Assembly: GCA_041649575.1 (NCBI GenBank)
Contig: JBAZMW010000002.1
Coordinates: 148,487 to 212,486, forward strand
Source of the DNA: Patescibacteria group bacterium
GTDB taxonomy: Bacteria > Patescibacteriota > Patescibacteriia > 2-01-FULL-39-33
Direction: 5' to 3'
Length of the DNA stretch: 64,000 bases
Position 1 is the first letter of the stretch. Each line of letters begins with the position of its first letter. Made by a program: the position numbers and the translations under genes. Shown one piece after another: positions 1,024 to 42,657 of the stretch. The notes under the pieces were generated by a model, which was given only the letters and a program-made list of their open reading frames with translations, made no database searches and had not been told where the DNA came from.

Positions 1024-2181
1024 ATGTCTATTTTAGATCAAGTTAGAAAAAATCAATTTCAGGACAATTTAGCCGGTTTTAATCCCGTGTCCACTCTTAA
1101 TACTTTATTTTCCAGTCTAAGCGACAAAGAAAGAGATGTTGTTAGGCGGCGTTTTGGCTTGGGTACGGATCGCAAATATACCTTGGAAGAAATCGGCAAA
1201 CAATACGGCATTACTCGGGAAAGAGTGCGCCAGATAGAGAGTTTAAGCATCAAAAAATTAAAAGAACTTCAAGAATTGAAAGAAGAAATCGAAAAAGCCG
1301 AAAAAGTTGTGGTTCAGCTGTTGGAGCAGTATGGCGGCGTTATGGAACAAGATTTCTTTTTGGAAAAAGTCCTTAATTATTTAGAGGCCCAAGAAAATAT
1401 CGAGAATGTCTTGTTGTTTTTGGCCGAACACATTTTTTCCGACAATGTCTCCAAGGTCCGCCAGGACAAGGAATTCAATAATTTATGGAGAACCGATAGC
1501 GCCGATGTCACCTCGCTGAAGGATATTGTTAATGAGATGGTCCGAGTGATCAGTCAAAACAATCAGCCCGTTCAGCTGCAGAACTTGCTTAACAGTTTCA
1601 AAGACTCCGAATTCTATCAAAAAAACAAAGATAAAATTCTTTCTCGGGCGGTTTTTTTGGAAGCCACCGAAGAGGACGTGGATAAAATTTTAGAGAGTTA
1701 TCTGCGCGCTAGCCGCAAAATCAAATCCAATTTGTTTGACGAGTGGGGCTTGGTCTCTTGGGGCACTGTTCAACCCAAGAAGATCAATGATAAAATATAT
1801 ATGGCCCTAAAGAAAGCCGGCAAGCCTTTGCATTTCACCGAGATTGCCAATTTAATCAACGAAACCAAGTTCGACGATAAAATCGCTTATCCGCCCACCG
1901 TTCATAATGAATTGATTTTGGATGACAAATATGTTTTGGTCGGCCGCGGTATTTACGCTCTGAAAGAATGGGGCTATAATCCCGGCAATGTGGCCGATGT
2001 TTTAGAGGAAGTGTTAAAGGAAAATGGTCCTTTAACCCGCGACGAAGTTATCGAAAAAGTTTTGGCCAAGCGCCAAGTCAAGAAATCAACCGTCTATTTG
2101 TCGCTGATGAACAACAGCCAGATCAAGAAAAACGAGCAGGGCAAATACTATTTACTGGACGATACTGCCAAAAGTTTATAA
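1024..2181 (+). CDS. Sigma-70 region-4-like HTH protein with a C-terminal HARE-HTH-like domain
   Basis: N-terminus ERDVVRRRFGL..YTLEEIGKQYGITRERVRQIE matches the sigma region 4 pattern. The C-terminus (KPLHFTEIANLI...VLVGRGIYALKEWGY) resembles the HARE-HTH of RNAP delta-type proteins. Confidence 0.7.
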   Translation: MSILDQVRKNQFQDNLAGFNPVSTLNTLFSSLSDKERDVVRRRFGLGTDRKYTLEEIGKQYGITRERVRQIESLSIKKLKELQELKEEIEKAEKVVVQLLEQYGGVMEQDFFLEKVLNYLEAQENIENVLLFLAEHIFSDNVSKVRQDKEFNNLWRTDSADVTSLKDIVNEMVRVISQNNQPVQLQNLLNSFKDSEFYQKNKDKILSRAVFLEATEEDVDKILESYLRASRKIKSNLFDEWGLVSWGTVQPKKINDKIYMALKKAGKPLHFTEIANLINETKFDDKIAYPPTVHNELILDDKYVLVGRGIYALKEWGYNPGNVADVLEEVLKENGPLTRDEVIEKVLAKRQVKKSTVYLSLMNNSQIKKNEQGKYYLLDDTAKSL

Positions 2182-2256
2182 ACTTTAATTGTCAGCTAAA
2201 GTTAGCGTTTCAGACGCTAATCTAAGATAGTCTAAAACTCAGGAAGGTGACAAGGT

Positions 2257-12252: not shown

Positions 12253-12281
12253 TTGACAGAATTCTAATTATATGCTATTAT
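12253..12281 (+). promoter_or_regulatory. Promoter: TTGACA, 17-nt spacer, TATTAT
   Basis: TTGACA at 12253-12258 and TATTAT at 12276-12281, upstream of the GC-rich two-gene unit. Confidence 0.55.
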
Positions 12282-12357
12282 AATAAGAAGTACCTTTTAC
12301 CACTGTGAGCTGGCCGACTTAGTCGGAAAACTAAGAACGAAGAAGGAGAAACACATC

Positions 12358-12714
12358 ATGAGTCAAAAGACTGGCATACTATTGCTGCTGTTGCGGCCGA
12401 AAGACGGAGCGGCCGTCTTCTTGGACTGGACCCAGAACGCCCTCTTCATGCTGGAGAGCGCGAGTGCCACAGGCGTTTCGCCGTTGGCCGAGAGGGAAGA
12501 TCTGGCCAAGTGTATGAAGGGTTACGAGCTGTGTCCCGCGCTTGGCTACGGCCTATGCGCCAGGTGCCCTATGTCAGTCACCGGCGGTGCTCTCTGTAAT
12601 TTCTGGGCTTCCCAGGGATTCGCCCGCGTGCTCGACGCGCGCACAGAAGAGGAGGCGACCTTTGCCGATCTCGATGCCATGCGCGCCGCGCTCACCGCTT
12701 CCATTACCGGCTGA
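12358..12714 (+). CDS. GC-rich orphan protein, 118 aa
   Basis: AAGGAG SD 9 nt upstream of the ATG. Contains CARCP and other Cys residues. No recognised domain. Confidence 0.55.
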   Translation: MSQKTGILLLLLRPKDGAAVFLDWTQNALFMLESASATGVSPLAEREDLAKCMKGYELCPALGYGLCARCPMSVTGGALCNFWASQGFARVLDARTEEEATFADLDAMRAALTASITG

Positions 12715-12729
12715 AAGGAGAACACGGAC

Positions 12730-13107
12730 ATGCCAACGGTACAAGTGGCCGCGATAAATCTGCCGGCTGGCGCCTTCCTTTTCTTCTATCCGGAACACGC
12801 CACCCCCCAGTACCTTCTGTACAAGAATATCTGGCTGGGACAGACGATGTTCAGGCAGAAGCTAAACGAAGACGAACTTCAGGCTCTCCTCGCCGCCGGT
12901 CGAAATGGGTGGGAGGAAGTGGGCGAGGTGACTCGACGAGAGTTGCAGGCCGCGGATCTCTCTGGACTGGTTCGCAATCTCAAGACCAGGTGCGTCTGGC
13001 CCGAGAATGCGACCGCGTCAATCGCTGTCAGTCCTGACTGCAGCGGACGATGCTCGGAGTGTCGCGGGTGCTATAGCGACATGGAGCCAGTCACAGTAGA
13101 GCGATAG
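12730..13107 (+). CDS. GC-rich orphan protein, 125 aa, with a C-terminal Cys cluster
   Basis: AAGGAG SD 9 nt upstream. C-terminal CSGRCSECRGC (C-x3-C-x2-C-x2-C). Confidence 0.55.
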   Translation: MPTVQVAAINLPAGAFLFFYPEHATPQYLLYKNIWLGQTMFRQKLNEDELQALLAAGRNGWEEVGEVTRRELQAADLSGLVRNLKTRCVWPENATASIAVSPDCSGRCSECRGCYSDMEPVTVER

Positions 13108-13129
13108 TCACACTGTGGTTCGTATCCGG

Positions 13130-13170
13130 GGGTTGTTGGTCGAGAAAGACCGGCAACCCTCTTTTTTTTT
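13130..13170 (+). terminator. Intrinsic terminator
   Basis: GGGTTGTTGGTC / GACCGGCAACCC stem followed by a T-run (about 10 T). Confidence 0.8.
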
Positions 13171-34002: not shown

Positions 34003-34968
34003 ATGAAGAAATCAAATCTGCCTATTCTCAGTCAGTTTTCGGACTTTCTGGCCTATTGCGAGGTAGAAAAAGGTCTTAGCCCCATTTCTACCAGAAATTA
34101 CCACAATTTTTTGAGAATGTTCGAAGGTTGGCTAAAAATCAAACATTTAACGCAGCTCAAGCCGCATGAGCTCACTCCAGAGCATGTCTGGGACTACCGG
34201 CTTTATCTTTCCCGTCGGCAAGACCGCTCTGGTCGCTATATCAAAAAAACCACTCAAAATTATTATTTAATCGCCCTTAGGAACCTTTTGAACTACTTCG
34301 CCGATAAAGATATTATCTCTTTGCCTTCAGAAAAAGTTAAATTACCAAAATTAACCGAAAAAGACAAAGCGATAAAGTTTCTAAAGTTTGATCAGATAGA
34401 AAAGTTATTACAGGTGCCGGATGTCACCACTCTTGAAGGCCTAAGGGACAGAACGATTCTCGAAATTCTCTTCTCTACTGGTATGCGGGTTTCGGAGTTA
34501 ACGTCGCTTAATATCAAACAGTTTGATCGCCTAGCTTTACTAAAAAATAATTTTTCTGATCAAGAGTTAAGCATCGCTGGTAAAGGTGGTAGAACAAGAA
34601 CGGTTTATTTTTCTCATCGAGCTTTGGGTTGGCTGGCTAGATACTTAAAAAACAGAAACGACCTCTATCCCCCGCTTTTTATTAACTATCGTCCCCATAA
34701 TGACAGAGATGACGAGCACCGTTTAACGCCTCGTTCGGTTGAAAGATTGGTAAAAAGACACACCGTGATGGCCGGGTTGCCTGTTGATGCCACGCCGCAC
34801 ACCCTGCGTCATAGCTATGCCACGGATTTATTGGATCAGGGAGCAGATTTGCGCAGTGTCCAGGAGCTTTTGGGGCATAAAAATATTGTTACCACTCAAA
34901 TTTATACTCACGTCACCAATCAAAAGCTTCGCTCCATTCATAAAAAATTTCATAGTGGCAATCATTGA
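34003..34968 (+). CDS. xerC: Tyrosine recombinase XerC/XerD family
   Basis: TPHTLRHSYATDLLDQGADLRSVQELLGHKNIVTTQIYTHV. Confidence 0.88.
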   Translation: MKKSNLPILSQFSDFLAYCEVEKGLSPISTRNYHNFLRMFEGWLKIKHLTQLKPHELTPEHVWDYRLYLSRRQDRSGRYIKKTTQNYYLIALRNLLNYFADKDIISLPSEKVKLPKLTEKDKAIKFLKFDQIEKLLQVPDVTTLEGLRDRTILEILFSTGMRVSELTSLNIKQFDRLALLKNNFSDQELSIAGKGGRTRTVYFSHRALGWLARYLKNRNDLYPPLFINYRPHNDRDDEHRLTPRSVERLVKRHTVMAGLPVDATPHTLRHSYATDLLDQGADLRSVQELLGHKNIVTTQIYTHVTNQKLRSIHKKFHSGNH

Positions 34969-34979
34969 AATAAAAACTA

Positions 34980-35006
34980 CGTCCCGATAACCGGGACGGA
35001 GTTTTT
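34980..35006. terminator. Bidirectional hairpin terminator
   Basis: CGTCCCG / CGGGACG stem with T-runs on both strands. Confidence 0.7.
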
Positions 35007-35029
35007 CAGAGAATAAAATCGTCTTTTGT

Positions 35030-35158
35030 TTATTCTTTCTCTTTGCAACCGCAGCCGCAACCGGCCCCGCAGGAACAGCAATGAAAACAAACCTCCGGCT
35101 CGCAGGAACAGCGGGTTTCTTCGTCTATGGGCATCTCGCATTTAGCGCATTTATCCAT
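35030..35158 (-). CDS. Cys-rich 42-aa ORF (11 Cys), metallothionein-like or peptide precursor; absent from the ORF track
   Basis: My translation is MDKCAKCEMPIDEETRCSCEPEVCFHCCSCGAGCGCGCKEKE. GC-rich. Possible promoter TTGCCT, 16-nt spacer, TATTAT. No SD. Confidence 0.4.
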   Translation of the reverse strand: MDKCAKCEMPIDEETRCSCEPEVCFHCCSCGAGCGCGCKEKE

Positions 35159-35197
35159 AAAATTTGGTTAATTATTTAATAATATCTAATTTCTAGT

Positions 35198-36451
35198 TTA
35201 AGGCAAGTAGGTCGAGGGGCTGACTGGGATGCCATTAGAGCGCACCTCGAAATGTAAATGGGGACCGGTAGAAAATCCCGTGTTGCCGCTGTAACCGATA
35301 ATTTGTCCTTTGGTGACATATTGATCACCTTTAACATTAATACTGCTTAAATGGCCATATAGAGTCGAGAGATTGTTGTTATGAATGATCATGACGTAGG
35401 TGCCATACCAGCGGGTGTTGGCGGCTACTTTGGCCACATAGCCGGATTCGGCCGCTTTTACTGGTGTGCCGATTTTGGCCGCTAGGTCGATTCCCGAATG
35501 TTCAAAGAGATTACGAAACGGGTAATCGGGATCATGAAAATAACAAGTAATCCGGGGATTGTTAATGGGCCAGATCAAAGCGGCTTCTCCCAGAGAATTA
35601 AATTTTTCCTGACTCCCCTTTTTTTCCAGCTCTTGTCGAATTTTTCTTTCCAAGGCGGCGATTTGATTATTGGCCGCCGTTTGTTCTTTTTTGAGATCGG
35701 TAATCAGGTTTTGAAATTTGACCTCCGATTTTTTGGTCTCGACAATCAGATACTGTTTGGCGCCCTTTTGTTCGCCCAGCGCCGTCTTTTCCTGTTCCAG
35801 CTTGTTTAGCAAGTCTGAAAGTTGATCGCGTTCGCCGTTTAATTTTTCTTTTTGCTTGTTCAAAGTTTCTACCAGTTCTTGCACGCGGTTCAGGGTTTTT
35901 TGTAAATCACCTTCTATATTTTCCAAAGCTTTTACCTGATCGAAAAATTCCGAAAAAGAATTGTTGCTTAGTAAAACAAAAAGATAATTTTTGTCGTCAT
36001 AATGATCGAGAGCGCGGATAAAAGCGGCCAGCCGTTCCTTGTCTTTATTGATCATCAGCTCATTTTCTTTGATTTTCAGGCCGATTTTTTCTATTTCCAG
36101 TTCGGTTGATTTAATCTCCTCTTCTTTGGCGGTGATGTCTAGTCCCATTTTGGCGATCTGATTATCCAAAATATAAACTTGATTTTTAAAGTTGGCCGCT
36201 TGGCCCTGGGCTTTTTTGATGCTGTCTTTGTGCTTGTTTATCTCCTCGGCTAATTTGTCTATTTTTTCCTGTTGGGCTTCAATTTGCTTGTTTAAATTGG
36301 CTATCAAAGCTTCATTAGAGCCGGAGTCGCCAGCTGTCTCTTGCGCTCGCCCTATTTCTCTGGACATCAAAAAAACACCGCCAAAAATAATTAACGGCAT
36401 CAAAATTGACGCTAAAATATGATATTTTAGCTTTTTCAGTTCGGCAAGCAT
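35198..36451 (-). CDS. M23 family metallopeptidase with an N-terminal coiled coil (EnvC-like)
   Basis: HSGIDLAA, YGHLS and GNTGFSTGPHLHFEVR, plus a long coiled-coil region. Confidence 0.88.
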   Translation of the reverse strand: MLAELKKLKYHILASILMPLIIFGGVFLMSREIGRAQETAGDSGSNEALIANLNKQIEAQQEKIDKLAEEINKHKDSIKKAQGQAANFKNQVYILDNQIAKMGLDITAKEEEIKSTELEIEKIGLKIKENELMINKDKERLAAFIRALDHYDDKNYLFVLLSNNSFSEFFDQVKALENIEGDLQKTLNRVQELVETLNKQKEKLNGERDQLSDLLNKLEQEKTALGEQKGAKQYLIVETKKSEVKFQNLITDLKKEQTAANNQIAALERKIRQELEKKGSQEKFNSLGEAALIWPINNPRITCYFHDPDYPFRNLFEHSGIDLAAKIGTPVKAAESGYVAKVAANTRWYGTYVMIIHNNNLSTLYGHLSSINVKGDQYVTKGQIIGYSGNTGFSTGPHLHFEVRSNGIPVSPSTYLP

Positions 36452-36500
36452 GGAAAGAAGATTATTTTAATCTTATTCTACAAGAATTATATAACAATTC

Positions 36501-36529
36501 TTGACAAAAATCAATCTCAAAGCTATTAT
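36501..36529 (+). promoter_or_regulatory. Promoter: TTGACA, 17-nt spacer, TATTAT
   Basis: TTGACA at 36501-36506 and TATTAT at 36524-36529. Confidence 0.55.
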
Positions 36530-36584
36530 TTTTATTAAGTTGTCCTTTGGCTTTTGGTGAAGTTTCAACAACGGAGGGAGAAAC

Positions 36585-36848
36585 ATGGGACTCGTCGCTC
36601 CTGACACTCGCGGCAACGCGTGCTGGCTGATTAAATGCAACAACTGCGGCCATCAGGCGGCTTGGGATGGCTCCAATGCCGAGCAAACCCTTAGCCTGGC
36701 CGAGAATGATGGTTGGACGGTAACTCGAGGCAAGGGCCCAGGTGAGGTGGTCGCTCTGTGCCCCGAATGCAGGAAGAAACAACAGAAAGTCACTCCAGCC
36801 GCCATTGTCAGCCTGATGGATTTCCGCCAAGCATTGCCCAGGCGGTGA
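36585..36848 (+). CDS. GC-rich small zinc-ribbon protein, 87 aa
   Basis: GGAGGGAGAAAC directly precedes the ATG. CNNC ... CPEC pair. Confidence 0.55.
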   Translation: MGLVAPDTRGNACWLIKCNNCGHQAAWDGSNAEQTLSLAENDGWTVTRGKGPGEVVALCPECRKKQQKVTPAAIVSLMDFRQALPRR

Positions 36849-36888
36849 GCCGCGGGAGGTTTCCGAGATTCCCAACGTCAAAGGTTTC

Positions 36889-36928
36889 AAGGCTTGGACC
36901 GAGCGCGGTTCAAGCCTTTTCTGTCTTT
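36889..36928 (+). terminator. Hairpin terminator overlapping the gltX 3' end
   Basis: AAGGCTTGGACC / GGTTCAAGCCTT stem followed by TTTTCTGTCTTT. Confidence 0.55.
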
Positions 36929-39294: not shown

Positions 39295-39984
39295 CTACTT
39301 TTTTAGATAATTCACGATGATTTTGGCCTGGCTCTGGTTTTCTTTGTCGTCCTTAAAAGACATCAGGCCAAAAATGTCGCCTTTCCAAAAGCCCAAATTA
39401 ATTTCATAATCTGCCAGATTTTCCTTAAACTCAAAGCCGCTTTCCTTCAGCTTGTTTTTGTAGTAGCCGGCCACCTCTTCTTTCGGCTGGCTTATCTGTT
39501 TCCAGGACAAAGAGGTTGTTTCCATTTTTTTCAGTTCCGGCGAGCTTAGGGCTTTTTTTAATTCCTCCGGCGTAAAACCGCGCGACAAGTCTATTTTATC
39601 GGCAAAACTTTGGCTTAATTTAGCTTTCAAATCATTGGATAAATAAGCCAAAGTCGGCTTAAGCAGCCAGTTTGGTAAAAGGCCCATGATTTTCAAAAGT
39701 TTTTCCTTGCCTTCTGGCGTCTGCAGTTCAATCTCGGCTTTTTCCGGCAGATAAATGGCCAGTTCTTCCGGGAAATCACCCGGCAACTGGTTGACTTTTT
39801 CCACCACCGGAGAGACCGCCAATCTGACAGCGGCAAAAAGAGTAATGAAGATAATTACCAACGCCAAAATTAAACAACCGAAAAATTTGATAAATTCTCG
39901 GCTTCTATTTTTTTCCGGATTGTTCAGGTTGAGTTCCTGCCAATTTTTCATTATTTCCTGGCTAATTTTATTATATTCTAGCAA
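39295..39984 (-). CDS. Membrane-anchored hypothetical protein
   Basis: One TM helix (FGCLILALVIIFITLFAAV). No recognised domain. Confidence 0.65.
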   Translation of the reverse strand: MLEYNKISQEIMKNWQELNLNNPEKNRSREFIKFFGCLILALVIIFITLFAAVRLAVSPVVEKVNQLPGDFPEELAIYLPEKAEIELQTPEGKEKLLKIMGLLPNWLLKPTLAYLSNDLKAKLSQSFADKIDLSRGFTPEELKKALSSPELKKMETTSLSWKQISQPKEEVAGYYKNKLKESGFEFKENLADYEINLGFWKGDIFGLMSFKDDKENQSQAKIIVNYLKK

Positions 39985-40026
39985 ATACCAGCCTTTTTTG
40001 CAAAAGTAAATCAGTCTTGTTATAAT
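39975..40026. promoter_or_regulatory. Divergent promoter pair sharing one palindromic -35 hexamer TTGCAA
   Basis: TTGCAA at 39998-40003. Plus strand: 17 nt to TATAAT (40021-40026). Minus strand: 17 nt to TAGAAT (reverse complement of 39975-39980). Confidence 0.5.
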
Positions 40027-40030
40027 AAAA

Positions 40031-40240
40031 GTGGTTCATTTCCTCGAGACCCGAACTGGTCATTTGGGTCTCACCGCTCCGGTGGGGAAGCGAAACCAGC
40101 GCCTTCGCTTCCCCTCTGGCTTAACCAAAGCACCTTGGTAGCACTTCCCGGGTCTACTGAAAGCCGCATCCAGGCAAGCATTAGACCCGTTCCCGCTGTG
40201 GCGGCCGATGGCATCAGTCATCAGCCGTCCTTTTTGTTTA
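40031..40240 (+). ncRNA. Candidate GC-rich structured RNA R1 (~210 nt, class unknown)
   Basis: Has its own promoter and terminator (40200-40240). Perfect stems at 40046-52/40066-72, 40084-94/40104-14 and 40150-56/40182-88. I found no SD-preceded ORF. Confidence 0.45.
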
Positions 40241-40289
40241 TCCACAGTTAAATATTTATAACCAAAGAAATCTTTGCTATAATAAAATC

Positions 40290-40622
40290 ACATTGGACAT
40301 GGGGCTTGTCAAATGGCCCTGCAACCAGTCCGAACGGAGAACGAGCCATGAGAACAAAGACAACGAAGCGAGCAGCAGTGGGCGTGATGGTCGATGGCAC
40401 CGGCGGAACAGCGTACTTGGCGACGTCCTGACCTAACGAGAACGGTCGGACTGGGCGTCAAAGAAGTTCTCCGAGACGCTTGACTCAACCCAAGCGTCTC
40501 GCCGCACCTTAACTCTCCTCGGAGAGTTGTGACTATAGGTTTTCACGCTTTGACAAAGCGTGGACATCCCCCTAAGGTGAGCAGTCGGTTGCTGACAGGT
40601 AGCCGACTCTCTTTTTGTTTTT
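40290..40622 (+). ncRNA. Candidate GC-rich structured RNA R2 (~330 nt, class unknown)
   Basis: Promoter TTTATA, 17-nt spacer, TATAAT (40255-40283). 9-bp long-range helix 40325-33/40446-54. Hairpins at 40473-40500, 40511-28 and 40544-62. Terminator at 40583-40622. Confidence 0.45.
40348..40431 (+). CDS. Possible 27-aa mini-ORF inside R2
   Basis: MRTKTTKRAAVGVMVDGTGGTAYLATS with GGAG 8 nt upstream. It is enclosed by the long-range helix. Coding status is uncertain. Confidence 0.2.
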   Translation: MRTKTTKRAAVGVMVDGTGGTAYLATS

Positions 40623-40767
40623 AAAAAATTTAGTTATCCACAGGTACTATTTATTTCTTTAAAAAATAGTTATATAATGAAAGTGCGGAAGGTATTTACG
40701 ATAGCGTACAACCGAAGCAGGCCATCGGCCAAACGATCGGCCAAACGAAAGAAAGGTGGGACGGAAG

Positions 40768-41259
40768 ATGAGAAAGTTCGTGTTTTGTACGGTAGTACTG
40801 GCGTTCGCGTTTGTGATGATTCCGGCGACGAATACTCCGGCATACGCGACGCAACTCGATCAAGGCAAGGCAGTGGCGACGGCTCCGACGACGATGGGGA
40901 CGACGCAGCAGGACGTGCAGACGGCGATGAAGAGCAACCTGGTCCTCGACGGCACCGGGCAGAAAGTCGCTGAAGTGATGAAGGCGCCGACTCTTGACTC
41001 CGGACGAGTGATTGCGCAGACGGCGACGACGAAGACGGCACGCGAAGAGCAGACGAAGATCACGGCGAAGAGTGACACGGTTGTAACGGCGAAGATCGAA
41101 GCGCAAGGCATGGGCGAGCAGATGGCAGCGGCTGGCGAAGATGACGCTGGCACGATCATCGTGGCGACGAAGAGTGACACCTATGCGACGAGAATCGAGG
41201 GCCGTATCGCTCACGACGCGGACGCGACCTTCAATGCGAACGTTCTGATCATCGGCTAA
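40768..41259 (+). CDS. GC-rich secreted Thr/Ala-rich protein, 163 aa
   Basis: AAGGTGGG SD. Signal peptide MRKFVFCTVVLAFAFVMIPATNTPAYA. Internal repeat CGAAGAGTGACAC at about 41069 and 41168. Confidence 0.6.
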   Translation: MRKFVFCTVVLAFAFVMIPATNTPAYATQLDQGKAVATAPTTMGTTQQDVQTAMKSNLVLDGTGQKVAEVMKAPTLDSGRVIAQTATTKTAREEQTKITAKSDTVVTAKIEAQGMGEQMAAAGEDDAGTIIVATKSDTYATRIEGRIAHDADATFNANVLIIG

Positions 41260-41349
41260 CCACGCGGGCAGCGCCGAAAGTCAGAACGAGTAGTACCTTG
41301 GATACACAACCGATACCGGCCAACAGTCGGATCGGCCACCTCCAGAGTT

Positions 41350-41388
41350 GGGTCAGCTGGCAACGGCGACCCTCTCTTTTTTTGTTTT
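41350..41388 (+). terminator. Intrinsic terminator
   Basis: GGGTC.GC / GC.GACCC stem followed by TCTCTTTTTTTGTTTT. Confidence 0.65.
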
Positions 41389-41396
41389 GAAAAAAT

Positions 41397-41425
41397 TTGC
41401 CAAAATTTTATAAATTTTTTATACT
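41397..41425 (+). promoter_or_regulatory. Promoter: TTGCCA, 17-nt spacer, TATACT
   Basis: TTGCCA at 41397-41402 and TATACT at 41420-41425. Confidence 0.5.
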
Positions 41426-41431
41426 ATAAGC

Positions 41432-41756
41432 AAGCGGTTCCTGCTGTGGGAACCGTGCACATTGGGTCAACGGGTCAACCGGAGGGTACAAGCAATATGA
41501 AAAAGGAAATGAGAGCGCAGGGTTTGGTCGTGGCGAAATGGAAGTAGGCTAGACCGTAGCAAGGCAACTTAGCGTTGTTGGGCGGAGGCCCCAACTAACA
41601 GTGGGCCTCCGCTGAATCTTTCCCTCGCTTGAGCGGGGTGCTGGTATATCCTTCTCTGAAGGGGTTCCCCCGTTGGGAAGTGTTGCCCATTCAACGCCTC
41701 CTGACCGCACAGGCTGCAATTTGTCGCAAGACGAAGGGCAGCCTGAATTATTTTTT
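41432..41756 (+). ncRNA. Candidate GC-rich structured RNA R3 (~320 nt) with a possible 16-aa mini-ORF at 41497-41547
   Basis: Hairpins at 41435-55 and 41582-41612 (10 bp). Terminator CAGGCTGC / GCAGCCTG followed by T6. Mini-ORF MKKEMRAQGLVVAKWK has GGAGGG 10 nt upstream. Confidence 0.4.
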
Positions 41757-41781
41757 GCTATACTTAATTTATACTGAATTT

Positions 41782-42657
41782 ATGAGAGCAGCCAAATTTT
41801 ACAAAAAATCAGGGGCTAATGTTAAATGTCAGCTTTGTCGGCATTTTTGTCTGATTGCCCCAGCCAAGTTCGGCCTCTGCGGCATGAGGAAGAATATCGA
41901 CGGCCGGCTTTATTCTCTTAATTACGGTAAAATCATTGCCAGCCAGATTGACCCGATCGAAAAAAAACCGCTCTATCATTTTTTGCCAGGCAGTTTTGCT
42001 TATTCTTTGGCTTGCCCCGGCTGTAATTTTAAATGCCTTAATTGCCAAAATTCCGATCTTTCCCAAATCACCCCGGCTTTACAAAAGGCCGTTGATTCTT
42101 TGCCGGAAACCAGGCCGGAAGAGATTGTCGAGGCGGCCTGGGAAAACAATTGCCCGTCAATCGCTTATACCTATACCGAGCCCACCATTTTTGCCGAGTT
42201 TGCTCTCGACTGCATGGAGCTGGCCAGAGACAGTAATCTAAAAAATATCTGGGTTTCCAATGGCTATCTGTCGCCCGGTTGTCTGGAGGCCATCAGCCCC
42301 TATCTTGACGCCATTAATATTGATTTGAAATTTTTTAGCGATAAAAATTATCAAAAAATTTGCGGCGCTCGCCTAAAACCAGTCTTGGATAATCTGGTTG
42401 CTTTTAAAACAGCCAAAATTCATTTGGAAATCACCACTTTAATCATTCCCTCACTTAATGATAGCGATGAAGAGTTAACCGCTCTGGCAGAGTTTATTTA
42501 TCAAAAATTGGGCGACGACACGCCCTGGCATCTGGGCGCCTTTCACCCCGCTTACAAATTAAAAAATTTACCGGCTACGCCGACAGAAACCATCAAGCGG
42601 GCCCAGGCAATCGGGAAAAATATCGGCCTGAAATATGTTTATCCGGGAAATGTTTGA
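41782..42657 (+). CDS. AmmeMemoRadiSam-system-type radical SAM enzyme (PFL-activase-like)
   Basis: KCQLCRHFC...GLCGMRKN...DPIEKKPLYHFLPGS...GCNFKCLNCQN. ATG at 41782; the track's TTG at 41629 would run through the upstream terminator. Confidence 0.8.
   Translation: MRAAKFYKKSGANVKCQLCRHFCLIAPAKFGLCGMRKNIDGRLYSLNYGKIIASQIDPIEKKPLYHFLPGSFAYSLACPGCNFKCLNCQNSDLSQITPALQKAVDSLPETRPEEIVEAAWENNCPSIAYTYTEPTIFAEFALDCMELARDSNLKNIWVSNGYLSPGCLEAISPYLDAINIDLKFFSDKNYQKICGARLKPVLDNLVAFKTAKIHLEITTLIIPSLNDSDEELTALAEFIYQKLGDDTPWHLGAFHPAYKLKNLPATPTETIKRAQAIGKNIGLKYVYPGNV

Follow-up and report, generated by a model that had tools for sequence, protein, structure and literature searches.

In our most likely reading, the stretch that we call R1 (40031-40240, plus strand) is a lineage-specific gene for a small non-coding RNA, which carries a promoter and a terminator of its own and belongs to an uncultured Patescibacteria bacterium. 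Positions refer to the window, the whole 64-kb stretch of DNA that we analyzed. R1 is a well-delimited candidate sRNA gene that is not annotated as RNA and is mis-annotated as a protein. It has the features expected of an independent sRNA gene, as read from its sequence: its own promoter, a Rho-independent terminator, an intergenic position, and no translatable ORF. To the fuller reading, in which R1 is an independent structured sRNA gene, the first of a tandem pair (R1/R2) in a hot-spot, and in which we infer action in trans, we assign a probability of roughly 0.5. The window lies in a 235-kb metagenomic contig (ENA ERZ27247363 k141_2894300), of which an identical copy is present in Logan SRR8542065 and which carries NCBI locus tags with the prefix WC518_. 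The features discussed below are collected in Table 1.

Table 1. Features of R1, its surroundings, the GC-rich cassettes of the window, and the RNA units of related loci.
Feature	Position	Strand	Description
R1 promoter	39998-40026	+	−35 TTGCAA, 17-nt spacer, TG-extended −10 TGTTATAAT; promoter scan, 10/12 matches with TG
R1 −10 hexamer	40021-40026	+	TATAAT
R1 transcript (predicted)	40031-40240	+	~205-210 nt; start inferred at 40031-40034, 3' end in the U-tract
5' C/U-rich stretch	40036-40045	+	UCAUUUCCUC, unpaired; mean unpaired probability 0.99
Hairpin H1	40046-40072	+	10 bp, GAGACCCGAA/UUUGGGUCUC, 7-nt loop
61-aa ORF	40060-40245	−	NCBI PGAP hypothetical protein WC518_02040 / MFA5029515.1; antisense to R1; judged spurious
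UCUCACCGC	40069-40077	+	3' end of H1 and H1-H2 linker; degenerate form of the relatives' UCUCCUUCCGC
Hairpin H2	40079-40119	+	4 + 11 bp, core GGGGAAGCGAA/UUCGCUUCCCC
Hairpin H3	40124-40139	+	5 bp; linker CUUAA, common to R2, directly before it
Linker ACUUCC	40143-40148	+	unpaired; unpaired probability 0.98
Hairpin H4	40149-40189	+	GGGUCUAC.../...UAGACCC, internal loop
C-rich linker	40189-40199	+	GUUCCCGCUGU, immediately before the terminator; partly unpaired
Intrinsic terminator (H5)	40200-40239	+	hairpin 40200-40229, −18.9 kcal/mol, then UUUUUGUUU
TTATCCACA	40238-40246	+	DnaA-box consensus; just after the R1 terminator, 40 nt upstream of the R2 −10
R2 promoter	40255-40283	+	TTTATA-17-TGCTATAAT, TG-extended −10 at 40276-40283; promoter scan
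R2	40290-40620	+	GC-rich non-coding unit, 330 nt; whole-unit fold z = −2.9
TTATCCACA repeat	40634-40642		after the R2 terminator, 39 nt before the R3 −10
R3	40680-41395		mRNA for a 163-aa signal-peptide protein (gene 40768-41259)
R4	41428-41780		GC-rich unit, promoter TTGCCA-17-TATACT; ends ~30 nt before the radical-SAM start
Cassette genes	12358-12714, 12730-13107		orphan small proteins
Cassette gene	36585-36848		87-aa protein; faint sub-threshold zinc-ribbon matches
UCUCCUUCCGC units of relatives	L084 391-546; L086 541-804; L087 5552-5828; L088 5408-5598	− of locus	RNA units carrying the 11-mer

The TATAAT from which the preliminary description had predicted the transcript is present and forms part of a TTGCAA-17-TATAAT promoter with a TG extension. 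This promoter resembles that of unit a in the relative L088 (TTGACAAAAATTATTAATCTTGTATTATAAT), and the promoter scan finds 10 promoter-like sites in the 2.5-kb region around R1, where 1.8 are expected. Folding of the plus strand, the check that had been proposed for R1, yields five hairpins (four internal ones and the terminator) with a free energy of −89.1 kcal/mol. Shuffled sequences average −64.5 ± 3.6 (z = −6.76), and none of 200 was equally stable; the minus strand folds less exceptionally, with z = −4.4. The helices of this minimum free energy (MFE) structure have pairing probabilities near 1. The three perfect stems described earlier are all borne out: GAGACCC/GGGTCTC at 40046-52/40066-72, GGGGAAGCGAA/TTCGCTTCCCC at 40084-94/40104-14, and GGGTCTA/TAGACCC at 40150-56/40182-88. 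So is the terminator at 40200-40240, with a hairpin of about −19 kcal/mol followed by a U-tract, and so is the statement that no plus-strand ATG is preceded by a Shine-Dalgarno (SD) sequence, the only plus-strand ATG (40208) sitting inside the terminator stem. The motif TTCC occurs four times in R1, once in the linker at 40189-40199, against 1.27 expected (about 3-fold, P = 0.03). Together, the promoter, the terminator, the fold (z = −6.8), and the lack of a start-signaled plus-strand ORF support the proposed structured non-coding RNA of ~210 nt.

R1 does not belong to a described RNA class among those searched. In Rfam 15 it matches no family at gathering score or at E ≤ 10 in three ranges; the best match on 40000-40270 at E ≤ 10, P26, scores 17.4 bits against a threshold of 36 and lies on the wrong strand, over the terminator. 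The sole gathering-level Rfam match in the 64 kb is a tRNA-Gln, and ARAGORN finds no tmRNA and neither a tRNA nor a tmRNA at the R1 locus. Judging by a search for repeats of R1 in the window, which found none, we also rejected an origin of R1 as a DGR template, a retron, or a repeat-based element.

R1 occupies a 1.83-kb gap between a gene for a 218-aa membrane protein (39295-39951, minus strand) and a radical-SAM gene (41782-42657, plus strand), the latter followed by a gene for a 451-aa protein and a Memo/LigB gene in an AmmeMemoRadiSam-type operon. Four GC-rich blocks lie in this gap, R1 being the first; each has a promoter-like site on one side and a terminator-like hairpin or T-run on the other. 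In R2, the fold of the 3' part (40454-40625) reaches z = −5.9. The protein encoded by R3 has no homolog in 5.8 billion clusters, and R4 carries a 16-codon ORF (41497-41547) with a GGAGGG Shine-Dalgarno. At the corresponding junction of L088 (5641-5649, minus strand), the same 10-mer (TTATCCACA plus G) stands at the same 40-nt offset before TATAATAAAATCAC. The occurrence of this DnaA-box 9-mer at matching offsets in the window and in L088 suggests a conserved regulator site, here a predicted one, on the promoters of these RNA units. A replication origin at the two exact 9-mers was considered and rejected, there being only two boxes and a skew and gene orientation that look terminus-like. Cumulative GC skew peaks at ~33-35 kb (31000-36000), where gene orientation converges from plus to minus, consistent with a replication terminus region at 31000-36000; a gene for a XerC/D-type recombinase (34003-34968) is located in the skew-peak region.

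The second element of our reading, the pairing of R1 with R2, comes from structure-aware comparison. A covariance model built from the single R1 sequence was run without filters over 82 kb, and its best non-self match, with the reverse complement excluded, is the 3' part of R2 (40458-40621; 21 bits, E ~1e-4). Conversely, the model of the R2 3' part has R1 as its best non-self match (18.6 bits, E ~1e-3), with a noise match at 16 bits. In the alignment produced by the R1 model, H1, H3, H4, and H5 are kept in R2 with 4, 3, 2, and 4 double-sided changes, respectively; for H1, this amounts to 10 of 10 pairs kept, four of them changed on both sides. R2 lacks H2 in this alignment, whereas the model of the R2 3' part pairs the first hairpin of R2 with H2 of R1 rather than with H1. 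The alignment of CUUAAC and the hairpin that follows it (H3) is identical under both models. Unpaired segments common to R1 and R2 are UUCYYC before GAGAC, CCGC, CUUAAC, and the CUUUUUGUUU tail. A plain sequence alignment of R1 with R2 is not significant. The reciprocal best matches of the covariance models suggest a tandem duplication, and the view that R1 and the 3' part of R2 are tandem duplicates is moderately supported by them.

Tandem pairs of paralogous sRNAs are familiar from OmrA/OmrB and PrrF1/PrrF2. Like the members of those pairs, R1 and R2 are adjacent on one strand, possess their own promoters and terminators, appear related by duplication, and share short conserved segments. Unlike them, R1 and R2 are far more diverged, being related through structure-aware models only (18-21 bits), and are of unequal length (210 versus 330 nt).

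The alternative that survives best is that R1 is a decayed remnant of a horizontally acquired GC-rich cassette, probably transcribed and without function. The window contains cassettes of 58-61% GC in a genome of ~43% GC (12260-13170, 36500-36910, and 40680-41395), each with a strong promoter, a strong SD of the GGAGAAAC type, and a terminator, and together coding for orphan small proteins of 118, 125, 87, and 163 aa. The promoter/terminator framing shared by the cassettes at 12358-13107, 36585-36848, and 40768-41259, the orphan status of their proteins, the lack of any homolog of the R3 protein, and a gap content that is entirely different among relatives would all suit such an origin. Five clean hairpins spanning nearly the whole transcript (z = −6.8), however, are unexpected for a degraded coding sequence, R1 retains no residual frame or codon-position signal, and its paralog R2 keeps helices through double-sided changes. 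We therefore regard decay as unlikely, although it deserves more weight than the other alternatives below.

The lineage is sparsely sampled, and no relative of the flanking membrane protein exceeds 52% identity. Twelve related metagenomic loci (~64% GltX identity) keep the order memo-p451-(rSAM)-gap-memb-tagA-gltX. Their gaps range from a 180-nt AT-rich spacer to ~600 nt and hold from zero to several analogous RNA units; six contain GC-rich RNA units with a promoter at one end and a terminator at the other. The units of four relatives have an 11-mer, UCUCCUUCCGC, in common, which is invariant and mostly unpaired; the hairpin that comes next differs in sequence from one unit to another. The L084 and L086 units have no Rfam match, and the units of the four relatives look like an undescribed RNA family. 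On the opposite strand, the 11-mer was considered as the ribosome-binding site of a small ORF and rejected, an ATG being present there in L088 only (19 codons). A further RNA was observed in L095 at 2017-2215 (plus strand), downstream of the Memo gene: it is ~200 nt long, has five hairpins, its own promoter and terminator, a fold of z = −7.4, and the C/U-rich linkers UGCCUUCCUCC and CUUCCCCGG, and its model matches L087 2178-2365 (minus strand), at the corresponding position, with 12.3 bits.

R1 resembles the relatives' UCUCCUUCCGC units in kind. Like them, it lies in the gap between memb and rSAM-p451, on the rSAM strand, with promoter and terminator framing of its own, a GC-rich multi-hairpin fold, and a pyrimidine motif between hairpins that ends in CCGC. 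The window and L088 also share two flanking features, a promoter of the R1 type and a junction in which a terminator T-run is followed by TTATCCACAG, 30 nt, and TATAATAAAATCAC, so R1 stands at the position of 'unit a' of L088 and R2 at that of 'unit b'. R1 differs from the relatives' units in carrying UCUCACCGC in place of the invariant 11-mer and in covariance scores near noise. With up to two mismatches, UCUCCUUCCGC is not found in 39952-41781, where only the gapped variant UCUCACCGC occurs, in R1. The pattern TCTC.{0,3}CCGC, which was defined post hoc, occurs 17 times in 293 kb, seven of them inside RNA units. On the relatives' units, the R1 model scores 11.5-13.8 bits (E 0.01-0.06, roughly calibrated), which makes them the top matches in their loci and places them near noise, and neither the model of L095 2026-2215 nor that of the R2 3' part confirms the link between R1 and the relatives.

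Two candidate homologies were rejected. For the interior of L088 unit a, MAFFT was suggestive, but the local-alignment score with R1 falls below the shuffle mean and only the flanks are homologous; for L095 2026-2215, the linkers resemble those of R1, but R1 is not recovered by the reciprocal model. MAFFT alignments of the RNA units are structurally meaningless and were left out of covariation. No match was obtained with nhmmer for R1-R4 in 83 loci or with blastn in phages and plasmids. A search of genome contigs with the radical-SAM protein gave a best relative of 56% identity that lacks R1, and a degenerate six-pattern probe of the R1 DNA, designed through the 61-aa ORF, found nothing in viral and JGI metagenome contigs and did not recover the source contig itself. 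Given the unalignable interiors, the missing 11-mer, the near-noise scores, and the failed models, conservation of R1 beyond its own genome is not demonstrated. The conservation of stems in homologous loci, on which the preliminary description had staked its candidate, is ambiguous: the relatives yield no detectable R1 ortholog, whereas the paralog R2 keeps H1, H3, H4, and H5. Conservation among relatives concerns the locus and the type of element rather than the R1 sequence.

How R1 might act is suggested by its unpaired segments and by the translation signals of its host. An SD, defined by an anti-SD pairing energy of −6 kcal/mol or lower, is present in 18% of the window's 56 start regions and in all five tested ORFs of GC-rich units (12358, 12730, 36585, the R3 gene at 40768, and the 16-aa ORF of R4 at 41497). 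Acting in trans as a small RNA, R1 would use its stretches UCAUUUCCUC, ACUUCC, and GUUCCCGC to pair with purine-rich ribosome-binding sites (RBSs), which are rare in the genome and concentrated on GC-rich accessory cassettes. The first two of these stretches have unpaired probabilities of at least 0.98, and GUUCCCGC is only partly unpaired. Because the host genome is SD-poor, the target set of R1 would be unusually narrow. In the relatives, the motif with its 5' flank, GUUUCUCCUUCCGC, is a near-exact complement of the RBS ACGGAGGGAGAAAC of the 87-aa cassette gene at 36585 (−23.7 kcal/mol) and is complementary over 11 nt to the RBS at 12345 (gene 12358). When R1 is cofolded with each of the 56 start regions, its top three partners all bear an SD (ddG −20.2, −19.4, and −15.2; mean −5.8 ± 3.9); the complementarities behind the anti-RBS idea are 7-8 nt long, and a search of this extent should produce such lengths by chance. 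R1 is possibly a trans-acting sRNA of the anti-RBS type.

In Gram-positive bacteria, RsaE/RoxS and other Rsa sRNAs pair with G-rich ribosome-binding sites through unpaired C-rich motifs. Like RsaE/RoxS, R1 falls in or near the 100-200-nt range, has its own promoter and intrinsic terminator, and exposes several unpaired C/U-rich motifs between or in its hairpins. Unlike them, it carries UUCC(U/C)C rather than CCCC or UCCC, shows no sequence or covariance similarity to them (Rfam, E ≤ 10), and has targets that are only predicted.

Core genes for the most part have no SD, and start regions of another type were seen alongside the SD-led ones. A TAnnnT hexamer lies 6-7 nt before the ATG of the radical-SAM gene in the window (41782) and in four of five relatives (L084, L086, L087, L095, and L096), L095 being the exception with a distance of 8 nt; such hexamers precede the start of 11 of 55 window genes. 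A hexamer so close to the ATG suggests that the radical-SAM mRNA may be leaderless.

The same C/U-rich single strands can be viewed as protein sites, with R1 serving as a protein-binding or sponge RNA whose repeated modules of C/U-rich single strand plus GC hairpin are recognized by an RNA-binding protein. Such a module occurs three times in R1 (40036-72, 40143-89, and 40189-229) and once in each relative's unit, there with the invariant 11-mer, but no candidate protein is encoded nearby. The 11-mer, moreover, almost perfectly complements a cassette RBS, which favors base pairing over protein binding and leaves the protein-binding alternative doubtful.

The preliminary description had also proposed a switch-like alternative fold, in which GAGACCC pairs with the second GGGTCT. 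The complementarity is real as sequence because GGGTCT (40066 and 40150) and AGACCC (40047 and 40183) each occur twice; the pairing itself is thermodynamically uncompetitive. Forcing AGACCC(40047-52):GGGUCU(40150-55) gives −74.5 kcal/mol, and forcing GGGUCU(40066-71):AGACCC(40183-88) gives −76.2 kcal/mol, versus −89.1 kcal/mol for the MFE structure, a cost of 13-15 kcal/mol each. R1 would be, on this proposal, a cis-acting switch or attenuator that toggles through the duplicated GGGUCU/AGACCC and whose terminator gates read-through into R2 and R3. The opposite order of the duplicated hexamers makes alternative pairing possible on paper, and the R1 terminator does lie directly upstream of more units on the same strand. 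The two alternative pairings would, however, cross each other and cannot coexist, the MFE helices have probabilities near 1, and neither alternative involves the terminator stem. R2 and R3 each have a strong promoter of their own, no downstream gene is placed under the R1 terminator, and a search at E ≤ 10 gives no match to any riboswitch or leader family. Like riboswitches and attenuators, R1 is structured and has an intrinsic terminator at its end; unlike them, it has no fold of comparable energy that includes the terminator, no anti-terminator, no Rfam match, and no regulated gene directly downstream, nor any downstream ORF that lacks its own promoter. The uncompetitive pairings, the promoter of R2, and the missing riboswitch or leader match therefore lead us to reject the switch as highly improbable.

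The 61-aa minus-strand ORF had been described as devoid of expression signals, and the minus strand indeed has neither a promoter nor an SD. Its NCBI annotation was found by exact-sequence look-up, and the ORF forms a singleton cluster; in the ENA and Logan copies of the contig, no gene is called in the R1 gap. A full HMMER search of 1.84 billion (1.84e9) representative proteins returned no homologs, the matches being the ORF itself and two weak ones (E 6e-8 and 8e-5) to proteins in which the match is split into several segments. There is likewise no Pfam match, and pattern and tblastn scans of viral and JGI contigs recovered no relatives. Shuffling of the GC-rich block yields an ORF of 61 aa or more in 22% of cases. 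The GC1/2/3 values of the ORF are flat (0.57/0.57/0.62); in the genuine GC-rich cassette genes, GC3 is 0.64-0.74 and GC2 is lower. The call of WC518_02040 is probably false, made across a GC-rich gene for an RNA. That the region codes for protein, through this ORF or through a short peptide on the plus strand, for example from the GTG frame of 36 codons at 40031, is the least credible alternative of all: PGAP did call the ORF and one plus frame is open over the entire R1 block, but the call is NCBI's only, its length and composition are as just described, and the plus-strand GTG stands 4 nt after the −10, too close for a leaderless start when compared with the 6-7 nt of the radical-SAM genes.

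Overall, an independent sRNA gene remains our preferred reading of a locus at which the NCBI annotation places a hypothetical protein on the wrong strand. In a limited literature search, we found no publication on regulatory small RNAs in Patescibacteria/CPR, and to our knowledge members of this group do not grow in pure culture; a confidently delimited sRNA locus, with counterparts of the same kind in related genomes, would offer metatranscriptomics a concrete target. The more interesting lead is the wider pattern, in which relatives have an RNA family that resembles an anti-SD, GC-rich orphan cassettes are SD-led, and core genes are possibly leaderless. A speculative extension, which we hold to be rather improbable as it stands, is that SD-poor Patescibacteria with possibly leaderless mRNAs maintain a conserved hot-spot of fast-diversifying sRNAs in which an anti-SD-mimicking pyrimidine motif (UCUCCUUCCGC and variants such as that of R1) would selectively silence the few SD-led mRNAs, most of them from orphan GC-rich cassettes acquired horizontally; such a system would be an RNA-based layer of control directed specifically against translation signals of foreign type. 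If true, the anti-RBS idea would link scarce SD use, GC-rich orphan cassettes, and unannotated structured RNAs in reduced genomes.
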